DNA from: Tricharina praecox | Lineage: Eukaryota | NCBI RefSeq assembly: GCF_024521635.1 | Contig: NW_026250419.1 | Coordinates: 496,001 to 560,000, forward strand | Direction: 5' to 3' | DNA length: 64,000 nt | The notes under the pieces: model-generated | Told to the model about the DNA's origin: nothing | The model's input: only the letters and a program-made list of their open reading frames with translations | Database searches by the model: none | Made by a program: the position numbers and the translations under genes | Shown: piece by piece, positions 15,784-55,828 of the stretch | Layout: each line of letters opens with the position of its first letter | Numbering within the stretch: the stretch's first letter is position 1

Positions 15784-17435
15784 TTTCGCTGTGGTGAAGA
15801 TTTGGATTGGGTTGGAGCTAGACAGTTATCGAGTTTGTTGATAGAGCCGCGATATATAGCACATCCACCAGTGGCCATCCGGCAACTCTAGACTCCGTCT
15901 CGACGACGTCTGCAAGCACACGATCGCCCACCGGACCACCGGTGTCTGTGTATCGGACCACCGGTGGCAATCGTCTGCGGGTACTAGAGTACCTACGTGC
16001 ATGCAGCTCAATGGCAGAGATCGAGAGCTCTGCCATGGCCGATGCTAGTTGGTTATCGTCTATCTTCCATATGCAACATTCGCTTGCCATTCCCCCGTTT
16101 CCCAGTGCAACCCTAATCTTTCCTCACCCCCGGCACTCGCACCTGCAATTCTCCCTCAGGCTCCACGTCTCTTTGAGGGCGGAAAGTACAATACGTCTCG
16201 ACACAGTCCAGATAGGCTGCATGCGAGGAATGAAGAAACAAAAACAAAAACAAAAAACAAAAGTTGAGCGATCTTCTCGCCCTCAATCAGCAAACAGATA
16301 AAGTCCAAGCCATGCAACTCGCCAACTTGCGTTGGTGGTTGCAGCCACGAAAAGCTTCTTCTGGTGAAATCTAGGGCGTACATAGGGCTGACGTTTGCTA
16401 TGCTGTGCATACGAGCGTTTGAGCCGGGATCGTGCGAAAGCATGAGTGTCGCTGGACGCAGCGGAGAGAACTATCATATGCATCCGGTACACAATTCGAT
16501 CCTGCTGAAACTCGGGCTTGGACCGAGTGTCGAGTGCGGACGGCGATCCGGTACGGTAGGTATAGAAGCCACCGCATCTATCGCCGGTGCGCGACGCTCC
16601 CAATGACACCGGGCAAGTAAAGACGGCCCGCTTGCATATATTAGTTAATCCATATGTTCCGCAAGCGGCGATGCGATGCTTTGCGGCGGCGGCGGCGGGG
16701 GTTCGATACACTCCATCGATACTCCATCAAAAGTCACTCGCTCGTGATTCTCTGACCGTGGGAATTGAATCCAAGTTTGAGCGATGAAAGCATGAGCGAT
16801 GAGCGTCGCTGGACGCAGCGGAGGGAGGGAGGGAGGCAACAGCAGAGGTGGATGGGGCACGATCACATGCTACTGTCTACAGTCCGGACTCCAGGCAACA
16901 GGCTCGGCGTGGAAGCTCCAAACCCTCCGCCTTGCATGGGCCGGCACCGAGAAGTGATGAACGCACCAAGCAGACGCAGAGAACAGGTGAAGAACAAAGT
17001 GTAGTGTCCGGAGAATCATTTGCAGTGTGTTAGGTATCCCTGGATCGGCCTAGGTTTCCTCGTATCCTCGTATGTGCCAGTTTCCGATCCGGTCCTTCAT
17101 ATGTACCTGAGTAAGTACCTATGTCCACGCCCTTGCCTCAACAGTGACACCCCTCAGATGGAGGAGGTATCAAGAATACATACTTCGCTTCTTCGAGGGC
17201 ACACCTCTTGTGCGGAGGCGTCGTCGAGGTAGCCGAAGCAGGTGACACATATCGCAGCGTGAGATGGAAGAATCATCCAGACGCTCAGCTGCAGGGGCCC
17301 CGGAGAATATCGGTGAAGCAGGACAGGCTCTGATCTGGCGGGCGTCGCTTCGTCGTCGTTGTTATTGTTCATCGCCGTTGTTCTTGTCCATCGCGGGGTG
17401 GCCCGCACCACTTCATAATTTTCGAATTCATGTTT

Positions 17436-17592
17436 CCATCACGGAAAAAACCCCGCGTGGTCCAGTGGTCTAGGGCCACGCAATCGACGAGGGGAGCTGA
17501 GAGAAAGTCCCCGGTTCAAAACCGGGTGAATGGCCTATGTATTCAGCTCTTAGGGTTTCCAAGCCACCCGCCGGGGGTGGTGATGGTTTTTT
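17436..17592 (+). ncRNA. Candidate Pol III-transcribed structured RNA with tRNA-like D and T loops (not a cloverleaf tRNA)
   Basis: A box TGGTCCAGTGG (17458-17468), B box GGTTCAAAACC (17513-17523), six mutually nested helices, and a T6 run directly after the closing helix. Confidence 0.55.
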
Positions 17593-20500
17593 GTTTTTGT
17601 TTTTGGCATCACGGGTGGAGCACCAAATGTCACTTGGCACTTCATCATCACGTGACACGCTTTGCAATGCCAGCTGTGGAGGCACTGATGTGGGCAGACG
17701 GATGCCAGAGGCCACGGAGGAACATGCAGCAAGTGAGGTATCCGAGTGGGAGCTTGGGGAGCGTGAGGAAAGGGAAGCGGACCTGAGGCGAGAGGAGGAG
17801 GAGGATGGCGCTGAGGTTGAGGAATGGGGGTCACTCCCGCTGTTCCCCCCACACCTTCATCCATAGCATCTCGTGATGAAGAGGCAGGAGGCGGTGGCGA
17901 GGACTAGTGTCTTGCGGTGAGGTCGGGACGAGTCGAGGGAGTGGAAGTTGTCTTTTCCTAGTGTCATTTCTTTGGTGCGCTCATACATCGTTGGGACAGG
18001 CCGGGGCGGAGGACAGGGAAAGCCACATCGAGCCGCCTGATGAAACTTGGGTTGGACAGTAGCGGAGAAACGGGGGGAGGGAGAGAGAGATCTTCCTGCT
18101 TTATTTTGCATGCAGCCTATCTAGACTATGGCGAACCCACTACCTCCGTTTCCTGTCCGCCCTGGCCAGTCGAGGTGAAAGCTCCACTTCCCCTGCCCAT
18201 CCGCCTCGGGCCGACACAAGCAAAAAGAGGGAAATGGGGAGGGTGAACGGGCAGATATTGCCATGATCTAGATAGGTCGCAGGAAATCAATGAATGAACA
18301 AAAACGTTTTGGAGCAATCCATCCATCAAGACCCACGGAGACCGACGTTTTGCCGCCGAAACCGCCTACACAAGACCCCTCACCCCTGTGGGTGGGAAAG
18401 AAACATACGGTACTTGTAGGTACGGGCATTCGCCCCTTCCACATGACAGTGACGACCCATCACTCGAGGAAAACCTCTAATCCAACAGGCCCCCCGAGCA
18501 TCCATCCATCCTGGCATGTCAGTTCCCCAGCAGCCACTGGCCACTGGCCACTTGCAGTAATATGGAAATCAAGCTCCTAGCCCAACCGATGGCGCCCATG
18601 CGCTGGGCGGATCATATATGCTCTCCACACTGCAATGGGCCTTTAGTGTTTCACGGTTCACGCTTACCTATTGTCGGAAGAGAAAGCCGAGCACAGCTTT
18701 GGCGGCATCGGATGTACGGCAACCCGCGGCCATCCGGGTGGATATGATACCGGTGTGATACGGGCTGTGTGATCACTGATCAGTTACCGGAGACTTCGAG
18801 ATCGATTATCACTCGCCTGCGGTACCTACCTAGGTATTATTCCCAGAAAGGGAACTATGCACTACCAGTATTCGCGCACCACAACAGTCTACATACGCGG
18901 AGCCGGACTCCTAGGGAGGCGTCCAGGGGGCGGGAATAAGGCGTCGTAATGCACTCGTCCATGAAACTATACTACGGTAGAGCAACAACTGACGATACTG
19001 TACTGGGTGCTGGTTCCAATATACCTAGACCAATGTGATATCTGAGACTCATAAATGGCACTTATGCATACAAGCACCATTATTCCGTTCGCTTTGAATG
19101 CCGAATGCCGTCTGCAGATCCCATGCTTTGAGCCTTGGAGCCCGAACACCGAGACAAAAAACTACTTGGACACACCTCACCTCGAAACATGTCTCCCAGT
19201 GATATCCCATGAGCGTAGTGAGTTGGCACTATCTCGCATTCCGTTTCCTAAGGCTAACGCAACCATCCGCAGGGGAATGTGAATTCGCAAGCTCCTCGAC
19301 CAGCACCGGCAATTCAACACATTCTTGGTCTTGGTCGGTGCATCGATTGGAAATATACATACGTCTGGCATAATATCGACTCAACTACTTCATGTGCGTC
19401 CGGCCAGCTTTCGGATTGGGCTCAGGAACTACTAGTATCGCCCTCGGCTCCGTTGCTGGATGATGATAGCCGCATCCCCGATACCTCGAATGTCCATCCT
19501 CTTCCGACCCGGCTCCGACCTGACGCCGGTGCGGCCAACGAAAGCAGTGCGTTCAACTGTTTACACATTCCTACGGTCGTCTACCGTAGGTATTGTCTAG
19601 GTATTCAATGGGTGCAACGAAACAGCAGTCCGGATTTCCAGTGCGGACAAGAACCATTCTGCATCATCCGACTGCGGGTTACTACCTAGAGTGACCATCC
19701 GATATGTCATGTTCTTGGGAGTCGGCCATGGCGGGATCGCAATTGGCTCCTATGTACTCTACGTATGTAGGAGCTCGGCGACGCCACTGGCCAGCGGATG
19801 GCTTGGTTGCTTGCTTGCGTGCGGAAGGGGCTTGGGTCCTGGGCAAGACTGGGGCTCTGGAGTCTGAAGGCCAACACGACAGACCTATCTAACTAAACGC
19901 TCCGTTTGCAGATCGTCTCTTCGGAAGCTTGAGCTTGAGTTCACAACTTAGCGTTGACACGTGCGTTTACTCTACGACACAAGCAAACAAGCCGGACGTA
20001 CGGACGGACGGAGTTCGCGGGTATACATATATTAGGTACGAGCCGCGAAGGGTTTACCTTCCTATGTAGTGGAAGGCACTCTTAAGAGTAGACCTCGGAG
20101 ATCACCTTTACCTTTTTTTTCTCTTCGTCTCCTTCTCCTTCTCCTTCTCCTTCTCCTTCCCGACGTCGGCGATGAACCGGGTTAACTAACAGTTACCTTT
20201 GTTCAAAGTTCACACAAAACGGATATTTGATCGGGTGCACGCTGCCGCACGGTATGCCAGCACCCGTATGTGCGCACCTGCGCTGTGCAGTTGATTTCTT
20301 CTTGGGGCCCGGGGAGGTTGAGGTGTCGGCCGACCGACGAGTGTGAAGGAAAGGAAAGGCGGGGGGAGACTTCGATGGTGAGGCACATGCAGACGACACC
20401 GTGATCGGGGAAAACCCTACTGTACTCTACCTACGGTAGACAACCGACGATACGACACGATAAGACACGACACGACAAGACATGCTCGTTCCAAACGGCC

Positions 20501-21510
20501 TCCCTCACCACACGGCGTCTGTCTAGTCTAGTGTCCGCGGTTTACCAAGAGTACCAAGCACCAAGTACTCTAGCATACCCAAGTGCTTACTGGCCTACAT
20601 ATACGTCGGAAGACGATCGTCACAAACACCTGCGGCCATCGATTAGGTAGAGTATGCACCTAGACGGCATGCAGAGCAACCGCCGATGCAAACCCTTCCG
20701 AACTTCAAAGGCCTTGCGATTGTTGCCGTCGGCACCGAACTATCTAGAGTATGATGTACGTTCCTGGTAGTTACCCATTGGACGGCCATTGGCTCGAGAC
20801 GATCGCGCACGCAGGCAGGCTCGCAGGCAGGCAGGCGCAGTGTCAGCGAGTTCATCCGCAGCTGCGGGCCCGTCGTGATCGCCACATAAGCGGGGCTGGT
20901 CCAATGTCCCTGTCCATCATAGCCTCTACTCTAGGTAGCGAAGACTGCAAGCACGGAGAAAAAAGAGCATCTCGAACAGAGGGGAAGGGGAGATGATGAT
21001 GCATGTGATGTGATGTGATGTGGGCGAGACATATCCACTCTGTGTAGATATGCACTCCGAATCCGTGCTGCAGGAGGTCATGTGTTGGCAATGCGAGTGT
21101 GTACTTACTCCAAGTAGTTTGCTGTGTGTGAGGTGAGGTCGCCAATCGAGTCTGTTGGCGATGCAGTCGCAGTTGCAGTCGCAGTTGCAGTTGGAGCATC
21201 ATTGCCGAGGGGCTCGTCGCAATCGCTGTTTGCCTCCCTCCCTCCCTCCCTCCCTTCCCCGCACCGCATCGCACCGGAGACACTTGCACCACTTATTACT
21301 GGTGCTGCCGGTGCTGCGGCGGTTGCGGGCGATGGACGTGAGAGCCACGCGGAGAGACGCGCTCAGTTGCGGTCGAGCGAAGAAGAAGAAAGAAAAAACC
21401 GACTCCTCTCGCCATATGCACGAAACGTTGAGCCACAGCCACCCACCCACACGCACACCCACCCTCCTTCACCCAGTGGCACCACAGCGTCTCCGAGAAG
21501 AGATCGCCAC

Positions 21511-21568
21511 CCAGACAAGCAGACAAGCAGACAAGCAGACAAGCAGACAAGCAGACAAGCAGACAAGC
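21511..21568. repeat. (CAGACAAG)n octamer microsatellite
   Basis: About 7 tandem units are visible. Confidence 0.9.
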
Positions 21569-23884
21569 AAAACCCCCCTCCCCCCCTGTCCGCGCGCACT
21601 CTACTCTACTCTAGCCTAGCTCTACTTAGTTCCGCAGCATGCGCCCCCGACCCCCGACCCCTTGCCACTTTCGGCTGCGCGATCTCGTCTGGCCGATCGT
21701 GAGCGAACGAACGGGCCAGTCGCGAGTCGCGAACGAGCAAGCGTGAGCGACGTCTTTCCGGTTTCGGGAGGCAGGGTGGGCAAGATTGAGATTTTGAGAT
21801 TTTGAGATTGATTGCGCCAGGGGTAGGGGGGTCGGTATTAAAGGTTAAGTTAGCGGGGTTGTTGGTGGTGCCGTGGTGGTGGCGGTGCCGTGGTGCCATG
21901 GTGGTGGTGATGAGGAAGGAGGGAAGGAGCGGTGGCCGAGGGGACGGGGGGGTGGGGGGGGAGTGGGTACAAAGGGTAGCGTGACGCTGAGGGGGGGTGC
22001 ACAAGGTCTAGATTTCGAGTGTCGAATTTGGCACCGCACCGTGGCTATTTCGGTTTCTCTGCTCTGCTTGCTGACTGGCCGCAGTCCGGCGGGTGGGAAT
22101 TAATTAGAGTAGATACCGCGTAGGAGATACCGCGTAGGAGATACCGCGCAGAGGAGAACTCTGATCTGACCGCGCGAGTCGCTGTGCGTGTGCGTGTGCG
22201 GATGCTGTATGTTTCAACTTGCTTGAGACTCGAGAGTCGAGACGGTCTCGGCTGGGTTGTTTCTTCTTTCTTTCTGCACTTGCAACAGATTATTGCGAGA
22301 AACAAAAATGCACATGGAATCGCCATCCGTAGAGTAGGTACTATTGAAGGCCAAGCTGCCGAATACAGAAAGCCCACTGCTGTATACGGCAATAAAACCA
22401 TTACCTACATCTCAAGCGAAATGGGGCATCTACGGTATTCGGTACGCCGCACTGCACCACGCCATGAGTCGTGGGCGCGAGGGTTTGGCCGTGGCCGTGA
22501 CCGTGACCGTGGAAGCCCGCCTGGCGTTTGACGGAAGATCATGTTTCATGCAGGCGAAGCTTCAAAGGGTCCGTCCAGTGGTCCGTTCTCGTCATCCGTG
22601 CCTTTACATAACTCTTGTGTTGCCCGCCGAAACCGAAACCCAACCCCGGTGGACCCCTAGGTACCTTACTCTAATCTTGAGAAACGGTCGTTGCAACTTG
22701 CGCCACAAAAGGAAAAAGAGAGCGCCGCTGGATGCCCGCTTGCATCCCTCGTCTGCGGATTGCTGGCCAGCGGCTATCCTGCACCGCGAGGAATGCCGAG
22801 TCTTGATGAACGTCGTGGATTCGTGGATGGCCTAAACTTCAAAGCAGGTTTATGTCGGGAGCTGCGAAAGCGCGAGAGCGGAGAAGGCTGCAGGCTTGGA
22901 AACTCTTCACCCATCGCTGCGGCTTGCGGGCCTTGTTCTCTTTGGACGGAGATCTCCTTTGGCGGTGGTGGTGCTGTCATAGCGAGCTTGGCTATGATGC
23001 ACTCGAGGAACTCTTCTCCTAGCAGTTAGCACTCTACTGAGTGGGCCTACGGTGCTAGAGTTGGAGTAACCACTTCCTCACTTAGTACGATACATGGTGG
23101 GCTTCTGGAGATTGCCCGTCGATAGGATCAAGTCCAGGCGAGAATCTAGCGCAGGGGGGAGGGAGGGCAGCGTGAGGATGTGGACACAGCAAAACCTGCT
23201 GGCTGCCCTCCCTTGACCGTGTGTTTCGTGTTGTGCTGCTCTCTCTCTCTCCCACCTCATCCCTCACTCACACGGCTCCGGTTTGAAGCTGTCCATTCTT
23301 TCCCCCCTTCTCTTCTGTCGTTCGTTACTTCGATTCTAGCTATCGTCTCCGCCTGTCGATTCTAGATATCTTCTTTCCCCACGTTCACACTCTCCAGCCT
23401 GCGTCGTCATCACTGCCGCCGCCGCCGCCGCCTGCACGCAACCGAACAGAGTCAGAGACGCTGGATGCTCTAGCCTGCTGCTTGCTTGCTTCTGCGTGTG
23501 CGTGTTGCGGATCCAATCCGGATCGTCCCTCCCCTTGACGTAACAACACACTCGGAGGAAAACCCAACCCCCAAGGAACTCGTTAGGCTATTTTCCCATC
23601 CAACAATCCCACACACACACCATCTCGCTGAACTCATCTTTCGCAATAATCCTGGAAAAGCTAAACGCGTGTGGTGGCTATATTCATACATAACTCGTGG
23701 TCGTCCGCCCCCTTGGTAACCGACTATCGATCAGTTCCCTCGCGAAAGAAAGTTGGTCCTGCTCCTGAACGAGCGCCAACCCCTCGACACCACCCCCCTC
23801 CTCCCCAAAACACAACACAGTAAACACACAGTAAACACACCAACCTTCACACGCGGCCGTCCATTGGCCTAAACAACTGCAATC

Positions 23885-28168: not shown

Positions 28169-28254
28169 CCCTCTGTGGTGTAGTTGGTATCACACCGGAC
28201 TGTAATTGCAATGTTGTCATCCGTTGGTCACCAGTTCGACTCTGGTCGGAGGGA
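28169..28254 (+). tRNA. tRNA-Tyr(GUA) with 13-nt intron (28206-28218)
   Basis: Acceptor stem CCCTCTG/CGGAGGG plus discriminator A (C1:G72 and A73 are eukaryotic Tyr identity elements). D arm GTG..CAC; anticodon loop CT-GTA-A followed by an intron at the canonical 37/38 position; T arm ACCAG-TTCGACT-CTGGT. TATATAAA lies ~30 nt upstream and TTTT downstream. Confidence 0.95.
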
Positions 28255-53494: not shown

Positions 53495-55828
53495 GAGAGT
53501 ATGTACCTTTTATATACCATGGAATACGGAGGCAACCTTTTATATACCATGAATACCATGACGGGAATATAGCGACCTTTATTATGGCCGCAACAGGCGG
53601 GCGACAGGCGGTCAGAGTCTGGTGTGAAAATAATATTGGTAACTGCGAGCGGGCATGTGCGCAACATTGCACGGAGCGGAAAATCCACCACTCATGAAAT
53701 CCGTAACACAGAGCGGAAAATAAATAATACACAAATGAAACTGCTATGCATTCTTTTTTGTCCGAAGTTTGCAAGTACCCGCCTTATGCCCCGGCCTTCC
53801 ACAACTACCACAATGTTGCTGAGTTCTACCCGATGCTCTGGCCGCCGCCGCGCGTTGCCCTGCAACCGCCGCACGCGCCTGCTGTCGTTTCCCAATAATT
53901 TGACGATACTATCCAGCGGGAGCAGGTGGATGGCAGTTGTTGGCTTCTGAGGCAATCGCGCCGGGTATGATAAGGTGAGCGGCACCATGAAGGTTTGCAG
54001 TGCCATCCGCCGGGAGGGGTGGAGTAAAAAACGAATGGCCGCATGTTTTGACTACAATGGATGATTAGCAACTACTACTTCAATGGTAAGAAACCAAAAA
54101 ACAACTAACCTGTAGGTGCTATTCCAACGAGCGTAGGTAAAGGTTTCGAGTATAAAATCAACAGTATCCTTTCAGAGTTCAAGAATAAGTGCTAGAGCGT
54201 GGCTGCACGGTAGTAGATTGAGTTGAAACTGTTTGCAGGTACACGTACGGGCCGGTAAGTCTACCGCATACTGGATATGTTCGGTATCGTGAACAAATCC
54301 AGTATCCTCAGGCTCACGAGTGACAGTATGTAAACGCGCAATACGAACATCGTTGTTGATGAGTTTCTGGATACGAGGAGTGATAGTCTGTCCAGGCGCA
54401 GGATTCTGGGCAAGTTCATAGCGTTCCTGGCGTGCTCCCATCTCCTGGTGTCAAATACCATCCAACAATTCAAAGATCCCCAGCTCTCGAAGGTCTTTGA
54501 GCATGTTGAGATTTTCGACTGCGTTCGATGTTTGTTACCCGCAGCGACGATGAATTCCACCCGGAATCATTCCGTCGACCCAAAGCGTAGGATCGATCTT
54601 CGCAAGATAGTCTGCAGCAGTAGGTTTCTTCTCACGCAGTACGCTCATATCCGCATCGTAGGCAACACGGTTGATTGCCCGAGCCAAGCTCCAGAAGTTG
54701 ACTTTAAAGTCTTCATGGCCATTCTTCTCGAAGTTTCGTCGCAGATGCTCCAAGCAGAAGAGCCGTGTAGCTGTAGGACCGAGAACATCTTCCGCCGACT
54801 CGAGAAGCGCTTTATCGCGGTCGCTCATGATCGTAGCCGTGCAGACCTCCGGGATAGCAGCTTTCAGATGCGAGAAGAAATACCGCCAGGAGTCTTCGTT
54901 CTCGCTCTCGACAACGGACCATGCGAGGAGCATGGACTGTCCATTGGCATCGATACCGCTCGCAACAAGTAACGTTTGTGGATAAAACACCTTCAAACAT
55001 GTGCCGTTGATGGCCGTGAACTGCCGCGATTGTGCGAATGCGTGTCGCGACTCAGCCGGCGAAATAAAAATACGTTGGAAATCTCGTTTTCGCGGGTTTT
55101 TTGGTGTTGCCGAAGGCAGTGTTGTCAAATCGATAAAACAGTTTGGACTGTGCAGCTTGAGGGCGTGGAGATACGCCGGAAGATGAAAGAACTGAAGAGC
55201 GTGAGCGGCACTGCTGGATGCTACCAAACTGTTCCGGCACTCGAGCGCTGCATTGTAGTTGACTGTTTCTCTATGCCGAAACTTGACCGCGGCGATGATC
55301 TGTTCGGGGGTGACCTTTCTCGTGACGTGGAGAAGTTTCGACACCTCTCGTCGCAACCATTCCTGGCTGTTGACATGACTGTGTTTTGCAGTTTTTCGGG
55401 CGGGACAGGTGTGAAGCGGCTTTACCCGCCGTACCTCGACTCGGTCCTTTTGTTGCGTCGCATACACTCGGAAGGGACATGGCTTTTCGCGGTACTGGTG
55501 GCATCGGTAGTCGACTCGTGTGCGGTCTTTGGGGTGTAGCCGCGTGGAAAAGTTCTCGGCCGTGGCCCACGCCTCGACTGCTTGCTTCAAGGCAAGAAAG
55601 CATTCGAAAGATGATGATGATAATGATGGCGGAAGGACAAAAGAGTTGCCCCTTTATTTTCTCACCAGACTCTGACCGCCCGTAAGCTGTCGCCCGCCCG
55701 TAGGCTGTCGCCGCCATAATAAAGGTCTGTGGGTCAAACTGTATCCCTGTCATGGACTCATGGTATTCATGGTATATAAAAGGTTGCCCTGTATTCCATG
55801 GTATATAAAAGGTACTATATGTACTCTC
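53495..55828 (-). mobile_element. Mutator-like (MULE/MuDR) DNA transposon, 2334 bp, with long TIRs and 9-bp TSD
   Basis: The left end GAGAGTA..GTACCTTTTATATACCATGGAATAC...GGTCAGAGTCTGGTG (53495-53633) is inverted at 55653-55828. Flanks are ACAGATATG (53486-53494) and ATAGATATG (55829-55837). Confidence 0.93.
54110..55590 (-). pseudogene. Decayed MULE transposase (MuDR DNA-binding domain, DDE core, SWIM finger)
   Basis: Motifs CPFRVYA..HTC, FQRIFI, AINGT (normally DGT), IMSDRDKAL, CLEHLRRN, TSNAVE and CTCKQFQLNLLPCSHALA all lie in one frame. In-frame stops at 54535-54537, 54451-54453 and 54172-54174. Confidence 0.88.

Follow-up and report, generated by a model that had tools for sequence, protein, structure and literature searches.

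The element at positions 17436-17586 on the plus strand of the 64-kb stretch of DNA analysed here (hereafter the “window”) is read by us, with moderate confidence, as a single diverged member of a SINE-like repeat family with a tRNA-derived, Pol III-type core, possibly lying within a slightly larger repeat unit. This reading follows from the combination of many similar versions in public sequencing runs, their dispersal, a tRNA-type promoter, the private differences of the window copy, repeats in the surroundings and SINE-like ends. According to established Pol III biology, TFIIIC would bind the B box at 17513-23 and the A box at 17458-68, and TFIIIB would be placed upstream, aided by the TATA-like site at 17414-22. 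Transcription would then start between about 17436 and 17449 and stop in the T-rich run from 17587, the product being a compact RNA of about 140-155 nt; copies could spread via this RNA with a retroelement reverse transcriptase acting in trans, or inside a larger repeat. That the copies share one genome, that they are transcribed and how they are copied are points that we infer.

The original prediction had described six nested helices, an A box, a B box and a T6 run, all of which we recovered in the same places. The core is closed by the helix CCATCA/TGATGG (17436-41/17581-86), which encloses a second helix (17443-53/17553-60), a D-arm-like hairpin spanning 17455-17481 (9-bp stem 17455-63/17473-81, 9-nt loop AGTGGTCTA with GG), a 10-bp helix with three G-U pairs (17492-501/17542-51) around a T-arm-like hairpin at 17510-17526 (perfect 5-bp stem, 7-nt TTCAAAA loop), and a 3′ GC hairpin (17564-69/17575-80). 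The T6 (17587-92) follows directly 3′ of the closing helix, all of these features being on the plus strand. The minimum free energy (MFE) structure contains all six helices, the same helices appear when 17400-17620 is folded, and pair probabilities are mostly 0.9-1.0 across the element, the lower ones (0.18-0.77) belonging to helix-end pairs and to two inner pairs of the 17443-47/17556-60 helix. With RNAfold, the element reached an MFE of -67.5 kcal/mol against -52.7 +/- 4.4 kcal/mol in 200 dinucleotide shuffles (z = -3.39), and none of the 200 shuffles equalled it, so that the comparison with shuffled sequence proposed in the original prediction turned out in favour of the fold. The minus strand also gave -60.1 kcal/mol, with z -3.41 against its own shuffles; since it folds nearly as well by this measure, the significance of the fold comes mostly from inverted repeats in the DNA, and it is to four G-U pairs that the plus strand owes its advantage of 7 kcal/mol. 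Further copies of the element within the 64-kb window were not found, either with up to 3 mismatches or by blastn at word size 7.

Two promoter motifs lie within the tRNA-like hairpins. An A-box-like motif at 17458-17468 sits inside the D-arm-like hairpin and fits TRGnnnAGTGG, the established A-box consensus, and a B-box-like motif at 17513-17523 inside the T-arm-like hairpin is the only plus-strand match to GGTTCRANNCC in 64 kb. The two are 55 nt apart, start to start. A joint search for an A box, a B box 20-85 nt downstream of it and T4+ within 120 nt gave a single match in the window, while 200 first-order Markov simulations gave none; absent from every simulated window, the combination confirms the Pol III signals that had been claimed for this DNA. 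The A and B boxes with their D- and T-like hairpins are not a product of chance, and the element has the internal, tRNA-type A and B boxes of a tRNA-derived SINE.

Upstream, a TATA-like site at 17414-17422 (plus strand) reads CATAATTTT in the window and TATAA in most other copies, the majority reading being taken from the variants at 17417-21 and from the loose-end consensus of the aligned contigs described below. For comparison, the tRNA gene of the window at 28169-28254 (plus strand, 14-nt intron, 51 bits with Rfam; anticodon GUA as read from the alignment) has its TATA box 28-35 nt upstream of the mature 5′ end and is followed by a T4 run. By analogy with this gene, Pol III would start near 17440-17449, placing the A box at about +10 to +19, while a start at 17436, as needed by the closing helix, would place it at +23. 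Both distances are possible for type-2 promoters. A start near 17445 would leave the closing helix outside the RNA.

As for the terminator, the T-rich run at 17586-17605 (plus strand) reads T6 G T5 G T5 G, a (TTTTTG)3-type tail and a possible Pol III terminator. The T6 directly after the closing helix is there as the original prediction had it, but it opens a 20-nt run that is the exact reverse complement of 16239-16258, ~1.3 kb upstream, so that the T6 may not belong to the element. Elsewhere in the window, (TTTTTG)2 has a single match, with 1 mismatch, at 1924 (shuffle mean 0.17). A 38-nt motif stands beside both copies of the 20-mer (16198-16235 and 18099-18134, 31 of 38 positions alike, inverted), lying ~493 nt away from the 20-mer on the right side, and we did not find a flanking duplication around this inverted pair (16198-16258/17586-18134). 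The T-run may have come in as the A-rich tail of a minus-strand repeat next to it, or may itself have attracted such a repeat.

The assertion that the element is not a tRNA and forms no cloverleaf was borne out: ARAGORN finds no tRNA in the window and Rfam none at the element at E up to 10. It should be added that ARAGORN reports 0 genes in the window and thereby overlooks the tRNA gene at 28169-28254, which is the one RNA in 64 kb that Rfam detects at gathering thresholds. The Rfam scan covered 4227 families and was relaxed to E up to 10 on 17200-17800 (601 bases) and 17425-17600 (176 bases), where the element gave noise only: four matches, two of them on the wrong strand, with E no better than 0.34. 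A known family, which would have spoken against a new RNA, was therefore not matched at the element, and the models of RNase P, RNase MRP, SRP, Y, vault, U6 and 5S RNAs gave no match to it at E up to 10. A word at 17503-12 resembles CR-I, and 17540-55 CR-V, which in RNase P/MRP form helix P4 within the P1-P3 frame; an RNase P/MRP identity was dropped since there is no Rfam signal at E up to 10 and the multi-copy pattern is also contrary to it. The open frame at 17430-17609 had no candidate among proteins of 33-105 aa. In the open-access literature, no relevant paper contains exact strings of the element, and no description of a fungal element of such form or sequence was found.

Similar versions of the element are abundant in public sequencing runs. 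Four runs share words of 17300-17750, namely a soil metagenome (X1, 0.65 of the words), two air metagenomes (X2, 0.13, and X4, 0.04) and the run of a second organism (X3, 0.04, with 30 Mb of contigs), none of the four being on record as RNA. Their contigs were aligned on 17200-17800 at 80% likeness or more, 17576-17612 being skipped as repeat, which gave 186 contigs for X1, 30 for X3, 2 for X4 and 1 for X2. The 186 soil contigs comprise 13 at 99% likeness or more, 24 at 95-99%, 64 at 90-95% and 85 below 90%, and near full-length versions are 88-94% alike to the window. Among the pieces listed, those of X1 starting at 17378 and 17407 and that of X2 starting at 17404 all reach 17565-17575, and the pieces of X4 cover 17390-17560 and 17420-17569. 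At 17439 the window has T, and G is read in 43 contigs of X1, in 5 of 5 contigs of X3 and in one contig of X4. Word searches of other collections were negative in their scope: a 19-mer in metagenome contigs hit 8 loci, all chance matches to AT-rich coding DNA in which only 19-20 nt agree, and neither a 24-mer in genome contigs nor an 18-mer in viral contigs gave any hit.

In X1 the summed depth rises steeply from the unique flanks into the element. It is 6.3 over the unique flanks 17200-17220 and 17305-17367 (contig 6.34) and 9.2 over the unique flank 17620-17661 (contig 9.17), against 305 at 17410-30, 656 at 17431-51, 445 at 17452-72, 150-245 at 17473-17535 and 439-491 at 17536-77. The last interval lies in the best-kept 3′ part of the element (17536-17580, plus strand, kept up to 17577), which includes the GC hairpin and has none of the listed variants at 17538-17577. 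As summed contig depth is not a copy number, the argument is made from the depths of single contigs, which in X1 are 4.4, 5.9, 6.3, 6.3, 6.32, 6.55, 6.55, 6.68, 6.82, 7, 7.34, 7.6, 7.9, 8.03, 8.09, 9.2, 11.7 and 12.4. These values (4.4-12.4, most of them 6-8) match the unique flanks of the window (6.34 and 9.17), and none falls at 2-4, though X2 and X4 keep contigs of such depths. This uniformity at the depth of the unique flanks speaks for one genome, as mixed species would spread far more, and from these contigs it is quite likely, contigs of a metagenome being no proof of a single genome, that X1 holds tens of copies in the window's organism or in a near-identical strain. X3 has several versions of the element (at least 5) at depths of 5-39, while the 1 contig of X2 and the 2 contigs of X4 would also fit one copy per genome there. 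The alignment runs on into unlike sequence in a fraction of 0.31 in X1 and 0.84 in X3, from which it follows that the copies have different neighbours. Many dispersed copies with target-site duplications had been named in advance as the mark of an ordinary SINE, and as far as the copies go this is largely what was found, with dozens of distinct 80-99% versions, many with unlike flanks. Of the two options that the original prediction had left standing, the many similar contigs with unlike flanks speak for the SINE-like repeat of tRNA origin and against a lone, undescribed ncRNA gene.

The limits of the repeat unit are less simple. Likeness starts only at 17445 in some contigs, at ~17431-34 in most, at 17410 in about half and at 17242-17378 in a few; among the five longest pieces of X1 over the element, likeness begins no earlier than 17445 in three. 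The summed depth upstream is 602 at 17439, 477 at 17434, 213 at 17417-21 and 71 at 17389-409. Two upstream blocks on the plus strand can be told apart in the alignments: one at 17406-17444, common to many copies (depth 305 at 17410-30, 602 at 17439) and holding the TATA-like site, and a distal one at 17242-17298, present in few copies. The distal block is joined to 17406-09 in 3 contigs (two of X1 and one of X3, with the junction at 17284-86) and to 17445 in 1 contig, one of the three long X1 pieces just mentioned, which carries 17253-98 and 5 other letters immediately before 17445. The loose ends before 17406 and 17422 agree mutually (0.61 and 0.69), and they are similar to what lies upstream in the window itself. 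Judging from the aligned contigs, some members of the family have as much as 200 nt in common ahead of every plausible Pol III start, the TATA site among them. Retroposition of a Pol III transcript would be expected to leave the upstream promoter behind; such likeness ahead of the start is hard to square with a textbook SINE, and the assignment to that class is therefore tentative.

An 8-nt direct repeat, CATCACGG, is found on the plus strand at 17437-17444 and 17607-17614, bracketing 17445-17606 like a target-site duplication, with the second copy right behind the T-rich run. By our own estimate, chance would give about 0.3 matches of 8 nt in the whole grid, and far fewer at these places. The 5′ copy, in which most copies read G at 17439, lies in a stretch common to the copies and so is not private flank. 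Three more short words from the upstream blocks recur at 17638-58, and no LINE with the same 3′ end as the element was seen in the window. Several origins of these limits are possible: a SINE that went into an older repeat and later spread with it as a composite, insertion at a specific site, a DNA-level duplication of a gene together with its promoter, or chance. The 8-nt repeat around 17445-17606, together with the 3′ hairpin followed by a simple-repeat, T-rich tail, suggests SINE-like ends.

Variation between copies was compared with the structure at the listed sites, beyond which there are 24 further variants, and site by site rather than by haplotype. At 17436-17577, 5 of the 17 listed variable sites are in helices, against an expected 56% (79 of 142 positions; binomial p=0.027), which hints at selection on structure as far as the listed sites go. 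Both C>T variants in helices, at 17479 and 17497, turn G-C into G-U, and both G>A variants, at 17494 and 17513, break the pair unless compensated; the partner of 17439 in the closing helix lay in the masked stretch. The window copy itself differs from the majority at 17439, 17487, 17502 and 17419-21, private differences as would be seen in a single decaying copy. When four majority bases were put in, a rough look indicated that the helices 17455-81, 17492-17551 and 17510-26 stay, and that pairing becomes weaker in the closing helix, in the 17443-53/17553-60 helix and in the 3′ hairpin.

The surroundings of the element were described as gene-free, and indeed none of the 9 ORFs of at least 100 aa tested between 16283 and 24718 showed a Pfam family, even at E 0.1, but fragments of other repeats are present in this interval. 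About 90 nt downstream of the element lies a separate multi-copy block (17683-17866, plus strand), a 5′-cut fragment of a repeated ORF end, with summed depths up to 510 in X1 and 630 in X3 over 17683-17800. A 3590-nt contig of X3 with a depth of 283 ends within this block, and other copies of 17683-17800 continue leftwards in common sequence that is absent from the window. The frame ending at 17866 matches 29 representative proteins (E 2e-7 to 1e-3, 46-78% identity, 68-805 aa), with an acidic motif of ~55 residues in all 10 of the best matches aligned to it; a Pfam family was found in none of the 7 homologues tested, and no longer homologue was found. One match has a word reminiscent of the C-terminal part of fungal non-LTR retrotransposon proteins, and the block is probably, from its sequence, a transposon-borne ORF end. 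A dispersed motif of 21-38 nt is also seen near the element, with an exact 21-mer at 18110-30 and 52049-69 and a degenerate inverted copy of this 21-mer at 18260-86, giving a MITE-like pair at 18106-18286 (~180 bp). Elsewhere, the window has a tandem array at 21504-21577 (8-nt unit CAGACAAG, ~8 copies) and a DNA transposon, the minus-strand ORF 54535-55653 carrying MULE/Mutator transposase domains. ORFs of the window run uninterrupted up to 1078 aa, the long ones showing by Pfam RSN1_7TM/PHM7_ext, tubulin cofactor D, ankyrin and MULE transposase, and the plus-strand open frame 841-2892 (683 aa) has no Pfam family, its nearest Atlas clusters being unnamed ascomycete proteins (only 0.84). These Pfam families, the long uninterrupted ORFs, the tRNA gene with its intron and the weak Atlas lead to Ascomycota together suggest that the window comes from a filamentous fungus.

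Several observations stand against the SINE-like reading: likeness between copies continues upstream past the Pol III start, the candidate target-site duplication has its 5′ half in the shared stretch, the listed variants avoid helices (5 of 17, p=0.027), X2 and X4 have only 1 and 2 contigs and summed depth is no copy number, the tail is T-rich rather than A-rich and common to the neighbouring repeat, and neither an empty site nor a LINE partner sharing the 3′ end was seen. Another explanation, which we hold to be unlikely, is that genuine Pol III genes for a closed, structured RNA of ~150 nt make up a multi-copy family, arisen as DNA-level duplicates with their own TATA-type promoter besides internal A and B boxes and maintained by selection on structure. 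In such an RNA a tRNA-like elbow could be built by the D- and T-like loops and, with paired ends and an oligo-U tail, the RNA might be a fungal counterpart of Y, vault and YrlA-type RNAs. Such genes would agree with an upstream likeness that includes TATAA at the distance seen at the window's tRNA gene, with a T-run directly behind the closing helix, and with four G-U pairs favouring the plus strand; the listed variants, mostly outside helices (5 of 17 inside, p=0.027) and in two helix cases changing G-C to G-U, and the better keeping of the 5′ and 3′ parts while the middle varies, also point this way. However, a divergence of 5-20% between copies is high for an RNA with a function; with the majority base at 17439 the closing helix is broken, provided that the masked partner does not change as well; and over the B-box region only about a quarter of the summed depth can be aligned. 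Furthermore, the T6 is common to the neighbouring repeat, no Rfam relative was found, and the element sits among transposon fragments.

The copying of upstream, non-transcribed sequence would also be explained by a solo LTR, or some other part of a larger non-autonomous element, into which a tRNA-derived SINE had been captured (TRIMp3/Helenus-like). The repeat unit in some copies spans about 17242 to within 17577-17612, and the 8-nt direct repeat around 17445-17606 would mark the old SINE insertion. We regard this as improbable: no second copy lies within the window, TG...CA ends with a 4-6-nt duplication were not found for starts at 17215-17299 and ends at 17578-17639, and neither a PBS nor a PPT was seen, though a solo LTR whose ends have decayed would be compatible with this. 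In addition, PMC10886601 reports fungal Helenus from basidiomycetes only, whereas the window looks ascomycete-like, on the weak lead of the Atlas score of 0.84. Slightly less credible again is a single-copy, conserved Pol III ncRNA gene, the contigs being its orthologues from many related soil fungi. The 1 contig of X2 and the 2 contigs of X4, at different depths, would agree with it, and snRNA-type genes commonly have conserved promoter blocks upstream; against it are at least 43 distinct versions in one run at near the depth of the unique flanks, at least 5 versions in X3, whose 30 Mb of contigs look like one genome, and the unlike flanks of the versions. Finally, a decayed tRNA pseudogene, or chance hairpins with neither family nor function, seems very improbable even with D- and T-like hairpins that are clearly tRNA-derived, given a fold that beats 200 of 200 shuffles, a motif combination found in 0 of 200 simulations, and homologous versions in four runs which include parts that are not tRNA-like.

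If the element is SINE-like, as we favour, it would enlarge by one the small set of tRNA-derived Pol III elements known in filamentous fungi, which is not surprising; its use would be in repeat annotation, in avoiding false ncRNA or tRNA calls and in marking retroelement activity. The upstream likeness and the helix-sparing variation are odd points for a plain SINE. Should they hold in an alignment of copies, the unit may spread by a route that carries its promoter, or there may be a dispersed, structured fungal Pol III RNA family that nobody has described.

Among known fungal elements, MgSINE is a tRNA-derived SINE (SINE2), and AfuSINE2 is a further case. According to PMC5063351, AfuSINE2 of Aspergillus fumigatus has 140-493 bp, degenerate A and B boxes, 4-14-bp duplications and no cloverleaf. 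The element of the window resembles it in length class, A and B boxes, lack of a cloverleaf, probably dispersed copies and candidate short direct repeats at the ends; it differs from SINEs of this type in the likeness upstream of the start, the T-rich tail and the one closed, nested fold, the comparison being of build alone. A T-rich 3′ end is known from plants, where PMC4223381 describes the poly(T) 3′ tail of the wheat Au SINE and SINEs with terminators (“T+”). With the Au and “T+” SINEs the element shares a Pol III head and a T-rich 3′ end, a likeness of build only; these plant SINEs belong to another kingdom, and the T-run of the element is also found in the neighbouring repeat. According to PMC10886601, Helenus LTRs carry tRNA-like A and B boxes, Cassandra has 5S-like LTRs, solo LTRs are common, and insertion of a SINE into an LTR is proposed as the origin of Helenus LTRs. 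These TRIMp3 elements are like the family described here in dispersing a Pol III promoter with upstream sequence and in their frequent solo copies. Unlike Helenus and Cassandra, an LTR pair, PBS, PPT, TG...CA ends and a 5-bp duplication were not found in the window.

A last comparison concerns RNAs that borrow parts of tRNA. The element differs from YrlA, Y and vault RNAs in its lack of an Rfam match, its probably high copy number and its 5-20% divergence. On the other hand, mascRNA, vault RNA and animal Y RNAs mimic tRNA, are transcribed by Pol III and have an oligo-U end. The bacterial YrlA Y RNAs (PMC4201824) combine D- and T-arm modules without anticodon function with paired 5′ and 3′ ends, as does the structured core at 17436-17586, a resemblance of form only.
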